64,000 bases of DNA. It comes from Oxalobacteraceae bacterium GrIS 1.11. GTDB taxonomy: Bacteria; Pseudomonadota; Gammaproteobacteria; Burkholderiales; Burkholderiaceae_D. Under the pieces are notes generated by a model, which saw only the letters and a program-made list of their open reading frames with translations, was not told the origin of the DNA and ran no database searches. This document shows positions 7,950 through 21,357 of this stretch, in pieces. Both the position numbers and the translations under genes were made by a program. Position 1 is the first letter of the stretch; each line of letters begins with the position of its first letter. Location: NCBI GenBank assembly GCA_040544385.1, contig JBEONR010000025.1:30883-94882 (forward strand). The letters run 5' to 3'.

Positions 7950-8594
7950 ATGTCATTGACTGAAACTACTCTTACGACTCCTGGACATGATCAGGTGATT
8001 TTCTATGAAGGTCGCGATTTCCAGGGCAAGGCTTACCTGTCTACGCTGGGTGCGAAAGTTGATATTTATAAAGACTATCGCTCGCTGAACGATCGGCTGA
8101 ATTCGGTAAAAGTAGGTTCTTCGTGCAAGGTCACTGTATTTCGTACCGATAATTTCGGTGGCCCTTCAAAAGAGCTGTCCGTCGATACGCCCAATATCAA
8201 TATCGATGGAATGAGCGCTTTTATTGTTCTGGAAAAAGTGGGGCAGCATGCGCTGTTATTTGCCTTTGACGATAGCACGGGCCAGAATCGCAGCATGACG
8301 CTGCAAAGTGCCGGTTTTGGCTCTGTCACACAACCCAATCCCCAACCGGAGCAGGGGACCGATCCCCATAATCCACGAGCCTTTGTCACGCTCAAGGAAA
8401 CCGATATTGAAACCAAGCCCGTGGTGACGGCAATTTTTGTCAGAAAAACCAATGGCGAATATGAGTCTCCGAATGGCTCGATTCACTTCTATTGGAAAGA
8501 CGGAAAGGCTCACGCCAAAAACATCCCTGAATATGAGTCGGCAAGCCTGACTTATAATCAGGAAGGAAATGTATTTTATTTTTCCTGGAAATAA
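7950..8594 (+). CDS. Hypothetical protein with an N-terminal beta/gamma-crystallin-like (double Greek key) domain. The gene is low-GC.
   Basis: VIFYEGRDFQGKAYLSTLG…YRSLNDRLNSVKVGSSCKVTVFRTDNFGG fits two Greek-key motifs (Y/FxxxxFxG … NDxxSS[VI]). Local GC is clearly lower than the flanks. No signal peptide. Confidence 0.55.
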   Translation: MSLTETTLTTPGHDQVIFYEGRDFQGKAYLSTLGAKVDIYKDYRSLNDRLNSVKVGSSCKVTVFRTDNFGGPSKELSVDTPNINIDGMSAFIVLEKVGQHALLFAFDDSTGQNRSMTLQSAGFGSVTQPNPQPEQGTDPHNPRAFVTLKETDIETKPVVTAIFVRKTNGEYESPNGSIHFYWKDGKAHAKNIPEYESASLTYNQEGNVFYFSWK

Positions 8595-8708: not shown

Positions 8709-9659
8709 TTAAAACCCCCTATTTTCCCGTGCCAGGTAATACCATTCCTTGCCGGCGGCGGCCACGCTGTCGGGAAACAAGATCACGCCTTCGCATTCGG
8801 CATGCACGGGCGTGTCGTCGGCGCGCGTGCCGATCAACTCGCCCAGCCTGATCCGGTCGAAGCTGGCCCAAGGGCGGCTGAACGCATCGTCCGCGTCGCG
8901 CTTGTCATGCGCGGCCACCATGGTCCATGCTTCCATGTCAGCCACCGCCGGCGGCGGTGCCATCACCATTTCGAGGTGGGCCAGGGTGTTGAGGATCGCG
9001 CGGTAGGCCACTTCCGGCGCGGCCGGATCGTCGTGGCGGCCGCATTCCAGCGTCACACCATAGCCGCCCATGCTGCGCATGAATTCGGTGCTGCCGATGC
9101 CGTAAGCGAGTTCGGCTTCCAGCGCGCCCGCGTGGGTGGCGCGGCGCCGCACGCCGTCGGCGTAGGTCTGGAGCCAGCCGTCGACACAGCGGCCCACGCC
9201 CAGGCTACGCGCCAGCGCGCGTTCCTGTCCGGCGCGCGCGAACGGTTCCAACTGGCCATCATTATTGTGCGGGCCGACCATCACGAAGGGCGCGCCATCG
9301 CCGCTAAAGGAATGCAAGTCGAGCAGGACATCGTGACGGGCCAATAGCGGACAGAGCCAGTTGGCGGCCCTGTCCTCAAAATCTTGCGGCGCGTCGCTGG
9401 GGTAGAGATTGCGGTTCAAATTGCGCTGGCCGATGCGCTCGCCCTTGGCAAAGGCAAGCGCATTGGCGACCGGCACAAAGCTCACGGCGCCGGCCGTCAA
9501 GGCCAGCGCGCCGCTGTCGAGCAAGGCCATCACGCGCGTGATGGCGAGCGTGCCGCAGCGTTCGTTGCCATGCACGGCGCCCAGCACGATCAGACGCGGG
9601 CCGTCGTGCTGGCCGCAGTAGTGGATGGCTTTAAAATGCAGTTGGCCGCCTGTGTTCAT
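8709..9659 (-). CDS. Succinylglutamate desuccinylase/aspartoacylase (AstE/AspA) family zinc hydrolase
   Basis: The GAVHGNERCG motif and overall AstE_AspA-like pattern. The start is trimmed to MNTGGQLHF. Confidence 0.7.
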   Translation of the reverse strand: MNTGGQLHFKAIHYCGQHDGPRLIVLGAVHGNERCGTLAITRVMALLDSGALALTAGAVSFVPVANALAFAKGERIGQRNLNRNLYPSDAPQDFEDRAANWLCPLLARHDVLLDLHSFSGDGAPFVMVGPHNNDGQLEPFARAGQERALARSLGVGRCVDGWLQTYADGVRRRATHAGALEAELAYGIGSTEFMRSMGGYGVTLECGRHDDPAAPEVAYRAILNTLAHLEMVMAPPPAVADMEAWTMVAAHDKRDADDAFSRPWASFDRIRLGELIGTRADDTPVHAECEGVILFPDSVAAAGKEWYYLARENRGF

Positions 9660-9718
9660 GCCGGCTCCGGGTCGATTGCGATCAGCTCTCAATTCTATCC
9701 GGAAACCCCGCAGCCCGC

Positions 9719-14355: not shown

Positions 14356-15477
14356 TCAGCTTTGAGGCCGCCAGCTGAAGCGCTTGAAGGCAAGTAACAG
14401 CGATAGCGTGCCTATCAGCAAGAGAATGAACAGGGTATAGAGCAGTTTTGCGGCGTTGATCTGGCCGGACAGTAAGTCGCGCATGCTGCCCACCAGCGCA
14501 TTGAGCGGCAGTAACTCCATGGCGTCGCGCAGTGTTTTCGGCAAGCTGATCAGTGGCACCATGACGTTGCCGGTGAACAGCAAGGGGAAATAGAGGGAAT
14601 TGGCGGCCAGGGTGGCCACCGTGGTCGAGCTTGAAAACGCGGCGATCAAGATGCCGATGGCGAGGAAGGACGCGGCTCCAAGCGTCAACAGCAGGAAGGC
14701 GGCAGCCACTTGTGGGACGCCGGCGTCGAATCTGAGGCCATACAGCAAGCTCGCCAGCACGAACATCAAGCCACTGGCGCCCAGGCACAATAACAGCCGC
14801 GATACGCACCACACCAGCAGTAGCAGGCTGGGCTTGATCGGGAATAACTGGTAGAGCTTGAACATGCCACCCTCGCGCGCCGCCACCAACGTCAAGCCAA
14901 AGTCCATTAAGCTGGTGGAAAGAACGATCATGCCGGCCAAGCCCGTGACCAGATACAAGAGGTAGTTGCCGCCGGCGGGGCTGGGCGCGGCGCTGGCAAA
15001 GACCAGCCCGAGCATGCGCGGCTTGCCGGAAGACTCGATATTGTAGGCGTCGGTGATGGCGGCCACGATGCCGCGTGTTGCGGTGAGCAAAATATTGTCG
15101 CGCAGCTTGCCGTCCAGGAGCAGCTCGCTCGGCTGGCCCGTGCGCGTGCGCGCGCCAAAACCGGACGGTATCGTCAGTGCCAGGTCGCAAGTGTTGGTGG
15201 CGGCACCGACAGCATGGAGTTTGACCTTCAGCGAGCTTTGGCGGGCCAACTGGCGCGCCAGATAATCGCCGTAGGCAGCGCTTGCGGGACTGCCATCGAG
15301 ATTGACGACGCACAAATCGACGGGGCCGAGGGCGCTGCCGCCGCCAAATAATGTCATTTGCAAGATCAGCATCAAGGCTGGGAAAAACAAGGTCCAGAAC
15401 ATGCCGATTTTGCCGCGCAAGGCTAAAACGAGGTCGATGCGCAGAAATTCCAGGAAGATTTTGATCATCTTAGGCAC
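14356..15477 (-). CDS. ABC-2 type transporter permease (export component of the RiPP cluster)
   Basis: 373 aa with six predicted TM helices and an ABC-2 topology. Its start overlaps the stop of the upstream ABC ATPase fusion gene by 8 nt. Confidence 0.8.
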   Translation of the reverse strand: MPKMIKIFLEFLRIDLVLALRGKIGMFWTLFFPALMLILQMTLFGGGSALGPVDLCVVNLDGSPASAAYGDYLARQLARQSSLKVKLHAVGAATNTCDLALTIPSGFGARTRTGQPSELLLDGKLRDNILLTATRGIVAAITDAYNIESSGKPRMLGLVFASAAPSPAGGNYLLYLVTGLAGMIVLSTSLMDFGLTLVAAREGGMFKLYQLFPIKPSLLLLVWCVSRLLLCLGASGLMFVLASLLYGLRFDAGVPQVAAAFLLLTLGAASFLAIGILIAAFSSSTTVATLAANSLYFPLLFTGNVMVPLISLPKTLRDAMELLPLNALVGSMRDLLSGQINAAKLLYTLFILLLIGTLSLLLAFKRFSWRPQS

Positions 15478-17791
15478 CTGTCAGCTTGGCGAGGAAATCC
15501 TCGGTGCCCGTATGCTCGATACTGAATGCATTCAAGCCCTGCCGTTGAGCGAAGCTCTTGAATTGGGCCGCGAATTGCTGGCTCCCGTAAGTCAGGCATT
15601 GTTGATCTTGCGGACCGGATACGATGCCCGGCAATTGCCGCAATTGGGCCAGGGCCGGCGCGGACAAAGGCTCGAAAATGCGCACCTTGTTTTCACCCAC
15701 ATATTTTTTCACCAAGTCGGCAAGCTTGCCCTGGTCGACTATGCGACCGCCATCCAGGCAAATGACGCGGTCCATTCTTTCGATATCGGCGGCAAGGTGA
15801 GAAATGACGACCAGACTCATCTCCCGCTGATCCCATAGCTTGCGTAAGGCCTGGGCAAACCATTCATCGAGGCCCAGCGACGGTTCGTCGAGCAAGACAA
15901 TGTCGGGGTGGTGGGCCAGGGCGAGGAACAGGTGGACCCTTTGCATTTGCCCGCGCGACAGCGTCCTGTATTGGGCGGCCAGCAATTCATCGATGCCGAG
16001 CGCGCCGGTCAGTTGCTCGTCGCCGCAGCCATAGACGACCCGATGCATGCGTACCAGTTCGCGCACATACATCGCGCCAAACAAACCCACGTCTTGCAGC
16101 AAACCGCCCATCCGGCGTTTGCGCTCCATTGCGCCGGCTTGCCCGGCACCCCCGAAGCGCAATTGCATCGAACCGGCGTGCGGCTGGCGCAGGCCCATCA
16201 GGGTTTCCAGCAGCACCGTCTTGCCGCTGCCATTGCGCCCCACCAGGGCGACGCGCTCGTTGCGGTGGACCATCAAATTGTCTACGCACAAGGTGAATTG
16301 ATCCGATACCGCCAGCCTTAAACCGTTCACCGTGATCGCCGCTTCGGCGCCGATGACGCGCGCCTTGCGTGCGGGCAGGGGGGCATCATCGCTTGCTACT
16401 GCCTGGCCCAGGTAGCGCAACAGGTCGATAGCGCGCTGGCCATACAGGGTGTCGTGTATCAGGTCGCGCAACATGCCCAAGCCGCGCGCGCGGTCGCCGC
16501 CATATTGCATCGGCGTATTGATGTACAGCTGGGCTCGGCCAATGCGCAAATCGGGATCGTCCGGCGTCAGGCGCAGCGCGCGTTCATACGCAGTGGCAGC
16601 TTTTTCGCCATAGATCGCCAGCTTGGCGATATTGTTTCCCGCTAGGCGCAGCGCCAGCACGGCGCGGTGGCCGCGCAGGGTCCAGCGCCGCGCCTCGGGC
16701 AAGAGCGCGCCTTCGACCATGAGTATGTCGATACGGGCCAGGTCGGCATCGCCGACATCTTGCCCGGTATTGAGTTGCAGCGCGGCCCGATGCAGGCGGG
16801 CGCCGATGAGCAAGTCGAGCGCGGCGGGCGATTGCGCGCGCGCTTCCAGGGCCGCTATCGTGGCATCGAGTTGTTCCGGTGCTTGCCTGTGACAGGCGCG
16901 CAAGATCGCGACGCCCGCCGCATGCAGGAAATCGTGGTCGGCCTGCGGTTGCGGCGCGACGCAGTGGAAATCTTCCAGGCGCTGTCCCAGCCGCTGTTCG
17001 AGCATGGCGGCAATCTCGCCGTCGTTGCCCGCTTGCGCGAGGGCATGGAACAATTCCGCCACGCCGGCGCCGCCATGGCGCTGATGTAGGCGCGCAATGA
17101 TGCGGGCGCCTATGCGCCGGAGGCCATCGGCTTGCTCGAACGATGCGCCCACGCCTTCAAAGAACAGGCCGTCATTGGCGGCCGGGCTCAATAAGGTGCG
17201 CAGGCTGAACGAGGGCGGCGCGCCGTCGGCTTCGAGCGCGACGCCACTAAATTGCTCGGCAATCAGGCAAGCGAGTCCCTCGTCGAGCAGCCTGACGCCG
17301 CATGTGAGGAAGGCATGCCCCGTTTCATGGAAAATCTCGGCACGCAAATGCTCGCCATACTGGCCGCCTGATAATTGAATCACGGCAAAGCCCGGGAAAT
17401 TGTCTATGGTGAGATGCAGGCCTTCCCGCTCGGGCTTGTATTCCAGCAAGATGGTGGGCGCCGGTAGCGCCAGAAAATCGGCGCAAGCGGCGATCGCGTC
17501 GGCGAAGTCGCGCAGCGCGGCCGGCGGCAAGTGCGATCCGGCAAAAGTATACAGCGGCCCCTTGCGTTCGATTTTTCTTTTTCCATCGGCAATCGCGCGC
17601 AAGCTCGGCAGCGAATGAAAACGGCCGCGGAAGGCGAACAGGCGCGCCAGGATATCGCCGGCCGCCGCGCAATCGCCGGCCGCCGCCAGCGCCATGAATT
17701 GGGCAATCAATTGCCTTAACTCCCGGTCGACATCGGGGTGCGCGTCGCGCCGCCGCGCCGGAACCATGCGTGGATGCAAGCCCGGATTCAT
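15470..17791 (-). CDS. Tripartite protein: N-terminal HExxH (putative Zn-metallopeptidase-like) domain, TPR-like middle region, C-terminal ABC transporter ATP-binding domain
   Basis: The N-terminal region contains FHETGHAF. The C-terminal part has Walker A GRNGSGKT, the ABC signature LSRGQMQRV and Walker B IVLLDEPSLGLD. The ATG overlaps the stop of the SagB-type dehydrogenase gene (ATGA). Confidence 0.8.
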   Translation of the reverse strand: MNPGLHPRMVPARRRDAHPDVDRELRQLIAQFMALAAAGDCAAAGDILARLFAFRGRFHSLPSLRAIADGKRKIERKGPLYTFAGSHLPPAALRDFADAIAACADFLALPAPTILLEYKPEREGLHLTIDNFPGFAVIQLSGGQYGEHLRAEIFHETGHAFLTCGVRLLDEGLACLIAEQFSGVALEADGAPPSFSLRTLLSPAANDGLFFEGVGASFEQADGLRRIGARIIARLHQRHGGAGVAELFHALAQAGNDGEIAAMLEQRLGQRLEDFHCVAPQPQADHDFLHAAGVAILRACHRQAPEQLDATIAALEARAQSPAALDLLIGARLHRAALQLNTGQDVGDADLARIDILMVEGALLPEARRWTLRGHRAVLALRLAGNNIAKLAIYGEKAATAYERALRLTPDDPDLRIGRAQLYINTPMQYGGDRARGLGMLRDLIHDTLYGQRAIDLLRYLGQAVASDDAPLPARKARVIGAEAAITVNGLRLAVSDQFTLCVDNLMVHRNERVALVGRNGSGKTVLLETLMGLRQPHAGSMQLRFGGAGQAGAMERKRRMGGLLQDVGLFGAMYVRELVRMHRVVYGCGDEQLTGALGIDELLAAQYRTLSRGQMQRVHLFLALAHHPDIVLLDEPSLGLDEWFAQALRKLWDQREMSLVVISHLAADIERMDRVICLDGGRIVDQGKLADLVKKYVGENKVRIFEPLSAPALAQLRQLPGIVSGPQDQQCLTYGSQQFAAQFKSFAQRQGLNAFSIEHTGTEDFLAKLTGA

Positions 17792-18627
17792 GTGCTTTTC
17801 CTGCCGACTAATAGGACGGCGGCGACGGCTTCCGTCACCCCGTCAAGATGCAATTCCGCTTCGATTTCATTGTCAAAATATGAGCCATAGGGCAGGGCCT
17901 TCAAGCCCATGCCTTGGGCCACCAGGCAAACATTTTGACTCGCATGTCCCGCTTCCAGCAATCCCATGCGATAGCCGCGCGCGCCATATTTCGCGGTGAC
18001 CCGTTGCGGGACCGTCGTCAAGACGATGGCCAGCGGCGCGCGGGCGCTTTTTTCGTCGGATCGCAAACCCGTGCGGGGCCGTTGCCCGACATCATAATGG
18101 GACAGGATGCGCAAGGCGTGCGCTCGTGCATCGTAGTGCGCGATGCAAGGCGCGACCCCTTGCACCTTGTTCAAGAAGAGGTAAATTTCGGTCGGATACA
18201 GCGCGCCCGGCGATGGGTAGGGGCGCAGATAAAGTGTGGCGTGCGGTAATTCGTCTATCGATTTTTGCGCGCTCACGCCAAGGGCATGGTGCAGCAGGGT
18301 CGACACCTTGGCCAGCGTCAATTCGCCGGCCGGGCTGGTGACGCTACGCCGCTCCGCCAGGGTACGGCCGAGACGCGCCGTCAGCGCAGATGGCGGCGGT
18401 AAATCGAGCAAGGCATAATTGGGGAATGCATGATGGCCGGATGCACCCACTGAAATGAATTCAGGATTGTGCAAGTAGCGCGCGATGCTGCGCACTTGTC
18501 CGCTGCACGTTGCGCGGTAATATTTTGTTTGCTCATGGAATATTTCTACCGGGTTGTCAATGTCAAAATTGACGTAGAAAATTCGTGGCGGCAGTAGGTC
18601 CTGCAAAAATTTATTCATGTCTTCCAC
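17788..18627 (-). CDS. SagB-type (McbC-like, nitroreductase-fold) dehydrogenase for azoline-to-azole oxidation
   Basis: The PSPGALYPTEIYLF and LEAGHASQNVCLVAQGMGLKALPYG motifs match the SagB/ThcOx dehydrogenase family. It lies directly downstream of the YcaO gene. Confidence 0.8.
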   Translation of the reverse strand: MEDMNKFLQDLLPPRIFYVNFDIDNPVEIFHEQTKYYRATCSGQVRSIARYLHNPEFISVGASGHHAFPNYALLDLPPPSALTARLGRTLAERRSVTSPAGELTLAKVSTLLHHALGVSAQKSIDELPHATLYLRPYPSPGALYPTEIYLFLNKVQGVAPCIAHYDARAHALRILSHYDVGQRPRTGLRSDEKSARAPLAIVLTTVPQRVTAKYGARGYRMGLLEAGHASQNVCLVAQGMGLKALPYGSYFDNEIEAELHLDGVTEAVAAVLLVGRKST

Positions 18628-18703: not shown

Positions 18704-20014
18704 TCATGGAAATGGGTGCGGCGCGTTATTCAGAACGGGGAAGGGCGCGATACCCCACACATCGGCGATCTTGCGCAGCCGCCGTTCATCTTCGCTCATT
18801 AAACCCAGGCCGAAATTCAAAGGCTGCAAACCCGGCACCACGACTTTTGCGACCACGATGCCGAGACTGGCGATGTCGGCCGGGGTCACGTCAAGCGCCA
18901 GCGTGCGATAGCCGATATGGCGCAAATGTGCGATCATTTTTGGTAAATCAGGCTCCTGCTCCTGCTCCCGCTTCAGGTCGGCGCTCGAAACCGTACCGGT
19001 ATTGTCAAACAGGAAGTCGAGATTGGCGCGCCGCGCCGGATCGAGGTAATAGCTAAAGTGGTCGGTGGGATTGTCAATTTCTTCCAAGGTTGGAATCGGC
19101 TTCCCAAAATCCTTGATGCGCCGGCTCCACACGGCGCCATGCAAGGATTCGATGACGGCCTTGTTGATGGCGCGTTCGAGATGGGGATGGGCGCTGGCGC
19201 CGCAAGCCATCAAGCCTTCGCGGGGATTGTCGGCCATCGCCATGATTACGGGAATGCCCGTGTCGGTGGCGATACACCACAGGTGAAGCTGGACATTCGG
19301 GTTTTCCAGCGCCGCCCGCACACCGGGCAATAGCCTGGTGTCGTCGGCGATGAGCAGCCTTGGCGGCGAATATTTCAGTTGCCACATCGCGGCAAAGGCA
19401 TCCCTTTCAAGGACTTCGCATAAGCCGCCTAGCACGGCGCTTTGAAAATCGTCGGCGCAACTGAAACCGGTCGACACGCCTTGCATCAATTCTTCCCTGG
19501 GGGTGGCAATTTGCGTCCCCAGGAAGACCGTGCTGGCGGGAACCAGGCGTTCCCGGCCGCCATCCGACAAGTCCCGCGCGGCAATCCAATGCATGGGCAA
19601 TGAGCGGTTCGGCCGCGCAAAGGGGAAATCCGGCAAAGCGTATTGGGCGTCGCCAAACAGGATATAGCTGTCCAGGGGGATCGCCGTATCGCCCAACTCA
19701 TCGGCGCTGGCCAGGCGCAATTGCGCGTCATCGTAGATGCAGGCGGCATAACGTTCCATCGCCTCGCCAAAAGTTGCCCACATGGCCGTCGCGCGGTCAA
19801 ATGCGGCGCCGGAACCATTTAATGGATCGGGGCGCCTGGTGCGGCAATTCTGGCGAAAATAAGCGGCGTCGACCGTCAGCGCATTAAAGACAAACAATCC
19901 GGGCGCGATCGTGCTGCCGGCTTCTTCCATCAAGGACTTGATGATGCCGTGACGTTGATGTACCAAGGCGCCATGGATCTCCGCCAGGCGCGCGCTAGCC
20001 GAAAAATCTTCCAT
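18704..20014 (-). CDS. YcaO-domain cyclodehydratase (TOMM 'D' protein)
   Basis: N-terminal …FGEAMERYAA…, central STGFSCADDFQSAVLGGLCEVLERDAF (the YcaO ATP-binding region) and a proline-rich C-terminus …PHPFP (the PxPxP motif of azoline-forming YcaOs). Confidence 0.85.
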   Translation of the reverse strand: MEDFSASARLAEIHGALVHQRHGIIKSLMEEAGSTIAPGLFVFNALTVDAAYFRQNCRTRRPDPLNGSGAAFDRATAMWATFGEAMERYAACIYDDAQLRLASADELGDTAIPLDSYILFGDAQYALPDFPFARPNRSLPMHWIAARDLSDGGRERLVPASTVFLGTQIATPREELMQGVSTGFSCADDFQSAVLGGLCEVLERDAFAAMWQLKYSPPRLLIADDTRLLPGVRAALENPNVQLHLWCIATDTGIPVIMAMADNPREGLMACGASAHPHLERAINKAVIESLHGAVWSRRIKDFGKPIPTLEEIDNPTDHFSYYLDPARRANLDFLFDNTGTVSSADLKREQEQEPDLPKMIAHLRHIGYRTLALDVTPADIASLGIVVAKVVVPGLQPLNFGLGLMSEDERRLRKIADVWGIAPFPVLNNAPHPFP

Positions 20015-20015
20015 T

Positions 20016-20987
20016 TCATGCCTTCATTTCATGCAGTTTAGGGGCGGCAATGGCATTGCCGGGACGGCGCGCATTGCCGGAGCCGCATACGGGGCAACGT
20101 GGCAGTTTGAGCAAGTGGCTGGAGAATACTTCGCCCTTCAAGGCATCGACTTCGCGTATCGGGCTCAGATGCAGATCCGGGGCAATGCCTGACAAATACG
20201 AGAGAATCTGGCTCATCGACACGGCAATCGCCCAATGAATGCTCAGTTTGCTCGGCACCGGTCGATACAGGATATTGTCGACCTTGCCATGGGCGGAAAA
20301 TTCTTCCGCGTGGAGGCGGGTGGCACTCACACGGTGGAAATAGCATTCATAGCAGGCATTGGCTTGAGGAATGACCAGGGGTCCGCAGCGAACGATGTGC
20401 CAGTCCAGCGCCACATACAGGGTCGGCAGCTTCGCTTCGATGGCTTGCTGATTGAGCGAACGGAAAAACGCATGGTTTTCCTCGTCGGCACAAGCGACCA
20501 CGAGAGTGGGCACATTGTCAATAATGGGTATGTCGGACATGTCTGCACGCCTCAGCAATTCGATGCCGTGCGCGCTAATGGTGGCTGCTAGTTGCTCGGC
20601 CAACATACCGGTGCCGACCACCGCTGCACGCCAACGCTCCGCACTGGCCCAATGATCGCTGTCGGCGCCCGTGTGCGCCTTCATCGCGGCGACATAACTG
20701 AGAAAGGCGCGGGTGGAATCGGCCATCGAACGGCTATCGACATCGAGCAATATTTTCGAATTGAGCAGGAATTGTACGGTGGCGGAAATGGCGTCGGGAG
20801 AATAGCGCTGGAAGCGCTGTTCCGGTAAGGCATGGATATCGAGTCCCCTGGCAGCGGAGTCAATCAAGGAGCGCAGCAATCCAGCCCTATCCTGTACCGT
20901 CATGCGTTTTCCATAGAGGGTCAGGGAAAGTCGCTCCGCATCAATGATGGCAACATCCAAGCCTGGCGATAAATAATATTTTTTCAT
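20016..20987 (-). CDS. E1/ThiF-like cyclodehydratase partner ('C' protein) with a probable N-terminal leader-binding region and a Zn-tetrathiolate
   Basis: ThiF-like Rossmann segment AAVVGTGMLAEQLAATISAHGI. Paired CxxC motifs (CYECY … CPVCG). The stop lies 1 nt from the YcaO start. Confidence 0.7.
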   Translation of the reverse strand: MKKYYLSPGLDVAIIDAERLSLTLYGKRMTVQDRAGLLRSLIDSAARGLDIHALPEQRFQRYSPDAISATVQFLLNSKILLDVDSRSMADSTRAFLSYVAAMKAHTGADSDHWASAERWRAAVVGTGMLAEQLAATISAHGIELLRRADMSDIPIIDNVPTLVVACADEENHAFFRSLNQQAIEAKLPTLYVALDWHIVRCGPLVIPQANACYECYFHRVSATRLHAEEFSAHGKVDNILYRPVPSKLSIHWAIAVSMSQILSYLSGIAPDLHLSPIREVDALKGEVFSSHLLKLPRCPVCGSGNARRPGNAIAAPKLHEMKA

Positions 20988-21160
20988 GGCTGAAATGTCT
21001 CCGGGAGTAAAGACTTGACCTGGCCACTACTAGCTTGTGCAGGATCGAAAGACTTAAGAATTTTAATAGAATAATTAAACCAATGGATAGAAAGTTATAA
21101 TAATGTTGCATTAATTAAGATCAGGAAATATTTCTTCGGCCCGATAGTTTTTCCTTGCCG

Positions 21161-21192
21161 GCAAGCGGTGGCCGGCGCCAGCCACCGCTTGC
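21161..21192 (-). promoter_or_regulatory. Perfect 12-bp stem-loop between the precursor gene and the maturase genes (putative partial terminator/attenuator)
   Basis: GCAAGCGGTGGC-cggcgcca-GCCACCGCTTGC. On the transcribed (minus) strand it lies 10 nt after the precursor stop codon. No strong U-tract. Confidence 0.5.
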
Positions 21193-21201
21193 CCTTATTG
21201 C

Positions 21202-21357
21202 TTATTGCGTCTTGCTGGAACAACTGGTGCAACTACAACTACCGCCCACGGGGGCGATTGCGGAGGCGCCCACCAGTTCGTCACCATACAGGTCGGAGTA
21301 CTCGACTTCCGTCGTGTCGGTGATGGAAATGTCTTCCGTCAAAATAAACTTATCCAT
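21202..21357 (-). CDS. RiPP precursor peptide (51 aa) with a Cys/Ser/Thr-rich core. It is absent from the supplied ORF track.
   Basis: The minus-strand reading TTTATAGGAGATTCAT-ATG (SD + 5 nt spacer) gives MDKFILTEDISITDTTEVEYSDLYGDELVGASAIAPVGG-SCSCTSCSSKTQ*. An acidic leader ends in Gly-Gly, followed by a 12-residue core with 3 Cys, 5 Ser and 2 Thr. It sits immediately upstream of the E1-like/YcaO/dehydrogenase genes. Confidence 0.75.
   Translation of the reverse strand: MDKFILTEDISITDTTEVEYSDLYGDELVGASAIAPVGGSCSCTSCSSKTQ

Follow-up and report, generated by a model that had tools for sequence, protein, structure and literature searches.

A predicted gluzincin-like domain fused to the ATPase of an ABC-2 exporter, a candidate leader peptidase in an azole peptide cluster of Oxalobacteraceae

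Introduction

Which enzyme removes the leader from linear azole peptides? This step is the least understood one in their formation, and many of the corresponding gene clusters show no protease. The question arises in a particular form in Oxalobacteraceae bacterium GrIS 1.11, where the ATP-binding cassette (ABC) ATPase gene of an azole peptide cluster encodes a long N-terminal extension with an HExxH motif. The cluster lies in a stretch of 64,000 nucleotides (assembly GCA_040544385.1, contig JBEONR010000025.1, positions 30,883 to 94,882 of the forward strand), which is called the window in the following and to which all coordinates refer unless another locus is named. A preliminary description of this DNA regarded the extension as a possible leader peptidase that replaces the usual C39 domain of a bacteriocin exporter. 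We assign a probability of roughly 0.55 to the reading that the extension, here called the module, is a cluster-dedicated cytoplasmic leader metallopeptidase tethered to an McbEF-type exporter. This proposal builds on the predicted fold, the conservation of the putative metal site and the gene context, and it has to be weighed against several other functions.

Architecture of the fusion protein

The 773-residue product of the fusion gene matches, with 100% identity, a protein of Oxalobacteraceae bacterium GrIS 1.11 whose sole annotation is ABC-type multidrug transport ATPase. Its parts are as follows.

15470..17791, minus strand: fusion gene, 773 amino acids (aa), comprising a gluzincin-like domain, a tetratricopeptide repeat (TPR)-like domain, a linker and an ABC ATPase
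16937..17743, minus strand: residues 17-285, N-terminal helical hairpin and thermolysin-like (gluzincin) catalytic domain, as predicted
17315..17329, minus strand: HExxH motif (H155, E156, T, G, H159), located on the helix predicted to bear the active site
17270..17290, minus strand: LLDEGLA, residues 168-174, on the helix after it; E171 is predicted to be the third zinc ligand
16406..16936, minus strand: residues 286-462, all-helical TPR-like solenoid
16340..16405, minus strand: residues 463-484, Ala/Pro/Asp-rich linker, corresponding to length-variable, unconserved alignment columns
15473..16339, minus strand: residues 485-773, ABC nucleotide-binding domain (NBD) with a C-terminal extension of about 70 aa that is typical of ABC-2 ATPases

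All motifs quoted in the preliminary description were found in the translation, namely FHETGHAF at residues 154-161, the Walker A sequence GRNGSGKT at 518-525 and the signature LSRGQMQRV at 611-619, so that the reported fusion of an ABC ATPase to an N-terminal HExxH and TPR-like region stands. Walker B (VLLDEPS, 632-638), the H-loop (VISH, 662-665, with H665), the Q-loop and the D-loop are present as well, and the ABC motifs are invariant in an alignment of the close fused relatives. Pfam assigned ABC_tran to residues 505-638 (E 4.5e-21) and, below threshold, TPR_11 to residues 396-423 (E 1.4e-4). Neither Peptidase_C39 nor ABC_membrane was matched by Pfam in the 773-aa protein, which agrees with the reported lack of a C39 domain. 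Furthermore, the protein contains no signal peptide, no transmembrane segment and no hydrophobic segment, the highest Kyte-Doolittle mean over 19 residues being 1.55; since the module is in addition joined to an NBD, the fusion protein should be cytoplasmic.

Predicted fold and conservation of the module

An AlphaFold2 model of residues 1-462, for which 14 homologues were used, reached a mean predicted local distance difference test score (pLDDT) of 86.6 and shows an alpha/beta region with an all-helical solenoid after it, consistent with the TPR-like repeats noted earlier behind the HExxH domain. For residues 17-290, with 55 diverse homologues aligned, the pLDDT was 93.9 and the predicted TM-score (pTM) 0.91. 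This model displays the two-lobed fold of thermolysin, with a beta-sheet and active-site helix and a helical lower lobe; the HExxH motif lies within one predicted helix (131-145 in domain numbering) and E171 on the next one (151-165). Structural matches of residues 17-290 include M30 lugdulysin and ACE, with M61, thermolysin, M60 and M32 ranked lower, and Foldseek, used as an independent method, placed M1, M9 and M61 structures at the top, with marginal E values of about 1e-3 and TM values of about 0.4. M1 and M61 structures, including MfuP of M. fulvus (7xyo), are among the best structural matches. The alternative outcome, a high-confidence prediction of a non-catalytic fold, did not occur, and the earlier suggestion of a metallopeptidase fold in the N-terminal approximately 270 residues gains support from the model. 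The LLDEGLA sequence resembles WLNEGFA, the motif of the 'glutamate helix' in M1 enzymes. For the TPR-like solenoid, the best structural match was a haemophore, which is suggestive only.

A word-indexed search retrieved 14 close relatives, all of approximately 770-790 aa and with the same fusion, and an exhaustive profile search of 1.84 billion representatives yielded 160 proteins. Among the 118 representatives that cover the module, 37 continue into an ABC domain at the C-terminus, whereas the other 81 consist of 440-500 aa and stand alone. Both the HExxH motif and the HExxH-x11-E spacing are present in every representative spanning the region (119/119), and members without them are fragments or matches to the TPR part only. 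In 55 sequences with 14-50% identity to the query, no columns are invariant other than H155, E156, H159, E171 and A174, and D170 is conserved in more than 90% of the sequences with 15-25% identity. A lone HExxH is expected by chance in roughly 3% of cases for 773 residues (a rough estimate); a chance occurrence can be dismissed here because the motif and, at its fixed distance, the glutamate do not vary and the predicted fold is like that of zinc peptidases. Hence, a gluzincin-type metal site is very probably intact. Taken from alignments and model, the module is an undescribed, divergent family of predicted clan-MA gluzincin-like enzymes.

Sequence-based classification returned little for this region. 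Apart from the weak TPR match and a sub-threshold PqqD-like match, none of the Pfam, NCBIfam and PDB sequence matches cover the N-terminal 460 residues, and scans of the module and of stand-alone homologues against Pfam and NCBIfam gave no family above threshold. A PDB sequence search with the N-terminal 463 aa and the family profile resulted only in noise (E >= 0.01; Psb27, NELF-B). When 55 members were scanned singly, Peptidase_MA_2, SprT-like, eCIS_core and Peptidase_M1 recurred as sub-threshold Pfam matches. Three known families were considered and rejected. Membership in M1 is contradicted by the missing exopeptidase motif GxMEN, by a spacing of 11 instead of 18 residues and by the fact that Peptidase_M1 matched only 2 of the 55 members (best E 0.037). 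TldD/TldE (M103) was discarded as there was no PmbA_TldD match in Pfam or NCBIfam, and the alpha-ketoglutarate (alpha-KG)-dependent HExxH family (mod_HExxH, IPR026337) as neither the module nor four stand-alone homologues gave an NCBIfam match to it at E<=1.

The PqqD-like match mentioned above concerns residues 227-275 (16967-17113) and the PqqD-family peptide chaperone model TIGR04353 (E 0.012, 16.6 bits, cut-off 35). It may well be due to chance; if real, it would hint at a leader-recognition element in the lower lobe of the peptidase domain.

The azole cluster and its relatives

The fusion gene belongs to a tightly packed operon on the minus strand, in the order precursor, SagC-like, YcaO, SagB, fusion gene and ABC-2 permease.

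21202..21357, minus strand: precursor gene, 51 aa, MDKFILTEDISITDTTEVEYSDLYGDELVGASAIAPVGG-SCSCTSCSSKTQ, with an AGGAG ribosome-binding site upstream
20016..20987, minus strand: SagC/E1-like leader-binding protein (C protein) of the thiazole/oxazole-modified microcin (TOMM) type, 323 aa; NCBIfam TIGR03882 42 bits (cut-off 36.9), TIGR03603 partial
18704..20014, minus strand: YcaO cyclodehydratase (D protein, SagD family), 436 aa; Pfam YcaO E 1.9e-59, TIGR03604 255.6 bits (cut-off 219.25)
17788..18627, minus strand: SagB-type flavin mononucleotide (FMN) dehydrogenase (B protein), 279 aa; TIGR03605 117.5 bits (cut-off 78.4), Pfam Nitroreductase
14356..15468, minus strand: ABC-2 permease, approximately 370 aa with about six hydrophobic segments by hydropathy; Pfam ABC2_membrane_3 E 1.3e-23

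With the models for C, D and B all above their NCBIfam cut-offs and a precursor core rich in Cys, Ser and Thr, the operon is by annotation a biosynthetic cluster of the TOMM or linear azol(in)e-containing peptide (LAP) type. As reported before, the fusion gene starts inside the stop codon of the dehydrogenase gene: at 17788-17791 (ATGA), its ATG shares bases with the TGA. At the other end, its TAA (15470-15472) is one nucleotide away from an in-frame ATG of the permease gene at 15468. The open reading frame (ORF) call puts the permease start at a GTG at 15477, inside the fusion gene; the ATG, from which the protein reads MIKIFLEFL..., is the more plausible start. NCBIfam gave only partial matches for ATPase and permease, including DrrA/DrrB, NodI and GldA, and since every equivalog match was below its cut-off, no named ABC subfamily was assigned.

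No other peptidase gene is encoded in the cluster, from the precursor through C, D, B and the fusion gene to the permease. An AstE/AspA-like deacylase gene (8709..9692) was considered as an alternative cluster peptidase and rejected, given that unrelated genes intervene before the operon; such a gene was also not found downstream of the permease in the fully checked related clusters, where DUF2141 and MacB-type genes are located instead.

In every locus examined (22 genome loci and 11 others) the gene for the module directly follows the SagB gene of a C-D-B cluster. The co-occurrence with YcaO clusters, for which a survey had been suggested, thus turned out to be constant in all loci examined. 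The fused form was found in a paralogous cluster of the same genome (L001), in Pseudoduganella (L002), on metagenomic contigs (L003/L004, L032, L033 and L034), and in the 22 genome loci from Duganella, Rugamonas, Pseudoduganella, Massilia, Undibacterium and Parachitinimonas. Elsewhere the module is a separate gene, followed by DUF2141 and a MacB-type pump (L005, L006), by a separate ABC ATPase gene (L029), by a separate ATPase and an ABC-2 permease (L030) or by a Rieske oxygenase and a major facilitator superfamily (MFS) transporter (L031). The obvious forerunner of the fusion is the split layout, in which an ABC ATPase gene comes after the module gene. In a rough neighbour-joining tree most fused proteins group in one clade and four stand among the unfused ones, a weak sign that fusion took place more than once. 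The paralogous cluster of the same genome (L001 1089-8001) has its own fusion protein, P0007, which is 40% identical, and a different core; this pairing argues for a substrate-specific role of the module.

Most related clusters are accompanied by a conserved block of five genes for DUF2141, a MacB-type ATPase, an MacB_PCD/FtsX permease, a TP_0789/LolA-like protein and an unknown protein of approximately 400 aa (L002 13490-17656; L003 13608-18064; L005 5533-9831; L033 8796-13169). It also stands beside clusters with a stand-alone module and may represent a second export stage, from the periplasm to the outside. The block is absent from the 64-kb window, the cluster of which is therefore a minimal version.

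Precursors and the leader boundary

The idea of a C39-like function had been derived from a Gly-Gly leader boundary. A double glycine is literally present in the precursor of the window (...APVGG/SCSCTSCSSKTQ; the slash marks the junction between leader and core), and this part of the claim is correct. However, the leader does not fit the double-glycine consensus (Pro at -4, Ala at -7, Ser at -8), and the feature is not conserved in related precursors. In the closest relatives the junctions read ...ANALSEVIA/CCCCCCC and ...ANALSVSRDWWEA/CCCCSCC (...SRDWWEA/CCCCSCC); the cluster of the closest homologue, P0002, contains two candidate precursors on opposite strands with similar leaders (L033 998-1150, plus, and 1538-1714, minus) and the cores CCCCSCC and CCCCCCC. 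The paralogue in the same genome and all 22 genome loci (L007-L028) have ...ALADVSV/SCCTCSCSCCC, and more distant clusters ...MAAG/SCCCCCCFSVSA and ...ALGA/TCTSTSTCTSGYEF. Gly-Gly as a C39-type leader mark was rejected on the grounds that it occurs in the window precursor only and is missing from the closest and the paralogous cluster precursors. What the junctions have in common, and share with other LAPs, are small residues ahead of the core.

The leader motif I(S/T)..(D/E)(S/T)TE.EY connects the precursor of the window with those of 28 related loci; related precursors combine I(S/T)x(D/E)(S/T)TExEY/DLY with a Cys/Ser/Thr core. The SCCTCSCSCCC core of 11 residues is invariant over six genera, each of its residues can be heterocyclised, and its product appears to be uncharacterised. 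Several precursors continue after the Cys/Ser/Thr run with short C-terminal tails, KTQ in the window and FSVSA or GYEF in relatives. In L031, an ORF at 2-307 that runs off the contig end contains three repeated cassettes (...TTLTAGACSSSCCGSVE... and ...STISVGACSTCTCSSSCGSVE) and looks like a multi-core precursor, which would need cuts on both sides of each core.

Comparison with known systems

The nearest functional parallels are the peptidase-containing ABC transporters (PCATs) such as PCAT1, LahT and CvaB. They share with the fusion protein that a cytoplasmic leader peptidase, in our case a putative one, sits at the N-terminus of an ABC exporter polypeptide in a pathway for ribosomal peptides, and presumably also the logic of cutting the leader at the pump. 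In contrast, PCATs have a papain-like C39 cysteine peptidase instead of a predicted zinc gluzincin fold with TPR, they are half-transporters of transmembrane domain (TMD) and NBD on one polypeptide, whereas the fusion protein is the soluble NBD of a split ABC-2 system, and their substrates have a conserved double-glycine leader that is lacking among the precursors of this family. None of these three PCAT hallmarks was found, so the module cannot be said to replace a C39 domain in a transporter of that type; with its separate permease, the exporter is a split ABC-2 system. As an analogy of function, with a putative peptidase tied to the exporter, the comparison is still appealing. To our knowledge, C39 PCATs are the only peptidase-exporter fusions in the biology of peptides that are made by ribosomes and modified after translation (RiPPs). 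Moreover, linear azole clusters such as that of microcin B17 normally lack C39 and depend on TldD/E, and the leader of microcin B17 is removed by the unlinked TldD/E (M103) protease (PMC10885120).

Closer in transporter type are McbE/McbF of microcin B17 and DrrAB-type systems, in which a separate NBD and an ABC-2 permease likewise end the azole cluster and presumably export the product. The fusion protein provides the corresponding soluble NBD, whose Walker A/B, signature and H-loop are intact, and its gene is neighboured by that of an ABC-2 permease; the partial matches to DrrA/DrrB, NodI and GldA speak for this class. The NBD subunits of McbEF and DrrAB are plain proteins of approximately 250-320 aa, whereas the protein described here has 484 extra N-terminal residues.

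With regard to the peptidase part, AplP-like M1 enzymes and the M61 enzyme MfuP are zinc gluzincins with HExxH...E, like the predicted module, and these known enzymes process RiPP precursors. M1 enzymes, too, join a thermolysin-like catalytic domain to a domain of helical repeats on its C-terminal side. The module differs from them in the lack of significant sequence similarity, of GxMEN and of the M1 N-terminal beta-domain, in the spacing (11 versus 18) and in being fused or adjacent to a transporter ATPase. BepA (M48) combines an HExxH peptidase domain and a subsequent TPR domain in one polypeptide, as the module does; it is, however, a periplasmic M48 enzyme of outer-membrane protein quality control, and it was not found among the top 60 structural matches of the module. 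The known RiPP metallopeptidases are members of M1, M16, M61, M103 and M50; fusion to an ABC ATPase is not described for any of them (PMC10885120). In the full-text literature we found no description of the module nor of azole clusters in Oxalobacteraceae. A leader peptidase tethered to an exporter and a zincin with helical repeats are familiar arrangements; the peptidase family is uncharacterised, and the ABC-2 NBD as its partner is new.

Proposed function and alternative explanations

We propose that the fusion protein acts as the cytoplasmic subunit of an McbEF/DrrAB-type (ABC-2) exporter in a TOMM/LAP pathway. The SagC-like, YcaO and SagB proteins would first turn the Cys/Ser/Thr-rich core of the precursor into azoles. 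The tethered peptidase, with H155, H159 and E171 as putative zinc ligands and E156 as the catalytic base, would then hydrolyse the precursor and cut the leader at the small-residue junction before the core (...APVGG/SCSC... in the window), acting either as an endopeptidase or as an aminopeptidase, and the TPR-like solenoid probably holds the peptide or the flat polyazole. The product would be released beside the ATPase/permease complex and exported by it; because the leader would be cut beside the exporter, active compound should appear only at the pump. A true mechanical coupling of cleavage to transport is a more tentative part of this proposal. More doubtful still is its extension to the whole family, according to which the HExxH-x11-E and TPR-like proteins would be the long-missing cluster-encoded leader peptidases of widespread proteobacterial azole pathways and their repeated fusion to a type-V (ABC-2) NBD a metal-dependent counterpart of PCATs, with cleavage linked mechanically to the ATPase cycle and with the transporter as the only place into which the toxic polyazole is set free.

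If the module is the leader peptidase, its gene would serve as a new marker for genome mining, with approximately 160 representatives found, none of which is covered by Pfam or NCBIfam. Chemists would obtain a cognate protease for the release of mature products in heterologous hosts, and a second, independently evolved solution of cutting at the pump, on a different ABC fold, would be added to the known one. The finding also points to uncharacterised products, for example that of the SCCTCSCSCCC core, which could become azoles throughout.

Several observations speak against a tethered leader peptidase. Known peptidases are only remotely similar (9-14% identity, Foldseek E about 1e-3, TM 0.4), and the gap of 11 residues between HExxH and Glu is shorter than in the described families, for instance 18 in M1 and 19 in thermolysin. 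The M1 exopeptidase motif GxMEN is missing upstream of HExxH, and the nearest structural relatives are mostly aminopeptidases, so that trimming rather than the primary cut is possible. With 81 of 118 homologues unfused and an MFS transporter in place of the ABC transporter in L031, coupling to an ABC pump is not obligatory. Furthermore, the best-studied LAP leaders are processed by the housekeeping TldD/E protease (PMC10885120), which this genome may encode elsewhere, and an HExxH protein from a RiPP cluster may turn out to be a non-hydrolytic Fe/alpha-KG enzyme (PMC12636437).

In one alternative, the module is a pathway peptidase for secondary processing that trims the peptide after a TldD/E-like cut, removes a follower or cuts between cassettes. 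M1-type AplP, which trims lanthipeptide leaders, would be the model, and this reading is in line with M1 and M61 aminopeptidases as the closest folds, with the C-terminal tails of several precursors (KTQ, FSVSA, GYEF) and with the multi-cassette precursor of L031, which needs cuts on both sides. Two-step schemes as well as combinations of endo- and aminopeptidases are documented for RiPPs (PMC10885120). Nevertheless, GxMEN is lacking for an M1-like exopeptidase, the clusters encode no second protease gene, and follower removal cannot be the conserved role when the core of the largest clade, SCCTCSCSCCC, ends at the stop codon. Altogether, secondary processing appears unlikely to us.

We regard it as quite improbable that the HExxH domain modifies the peptide as a non-hydrolytic metalloenzyme, for example by oxidation or hydroxylation, in analogy to the alpha-KG-dependent HExxH enzymes. 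Such enzymes in RiPP clusters were mis-annotated as metallopeptidases for a long time, and some are encoded beside nitroreductase-type genes (PMC12636437). But no NCBIfam match of this kind was obtained, mod_HExxH included, even at E<=1; the structures closest to the module belong to hydrolytic gluzincins, and, as in that group, the third invariant residue is a glutamate carried by the following helix. The sole known non-hydrolytic structure of the HExxH type that was matched is SjiH-Ni (22ob), at Foldseek rank 32 with E 2 and a probability of 0.10.

Even less probable is an adaptor for substrate recognition or gating that brings the leader or the polyazole to the pump and in which HExxH is structural or vestigial: a vestigial site would not make up the only invariant positions over approximately 118 sequences at 15-25% identity. 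Finally, immunity is a second role of ABC-2 pumps in LAP clusters, McbEF among them, which might suggest a self-immunity device whose peptidase destroys cytoplasmic or re-entering toxin and whose pump expels it, but this is very improbable, as proteases act poorly on polyazole cores, some clusters with a stand-alone homologue have no ABC-2 pump, and the gene is always found among the biosynthetic genes directly after B.

Further features of the window and related clusters

In the clade with the SCCTCSCSCCC core, a gene for an LCM-type (leucine carboxyl) methyltransferase is located just upstream of the precursor (L002 5605-6468 and matching positions in L007-L027); it is absent from the cluster in the window. 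TonB-dependent receptor genes recur near several clusters (L002, L003, L030). Within the window, an ORF at 7950-8594 on the plus strand matches beta/gamma-crystallin and peptidase-inhibitor I36 domains; it is approximately 6 kb away from the operon and probably unrelated to it.

The precursor and promoter region has a lower GC content than its surroundings (0.50 for 20500-22000 versus approximately 0.62 in the flanks). Between the precursor and the enzyme genes, one additional element was found.

21160..21193, minus strand: GC-rich hairpin of 13 bp, lying 9 nt past the precursor stop codon

The hairpin has no U-tract on the transcribed strand and is possibly a partial terminator or an mRNA stabiliser. 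Together with the AT-rich region, it may form a processing or attenuation element that sets the ratio of precursor to enzymes.

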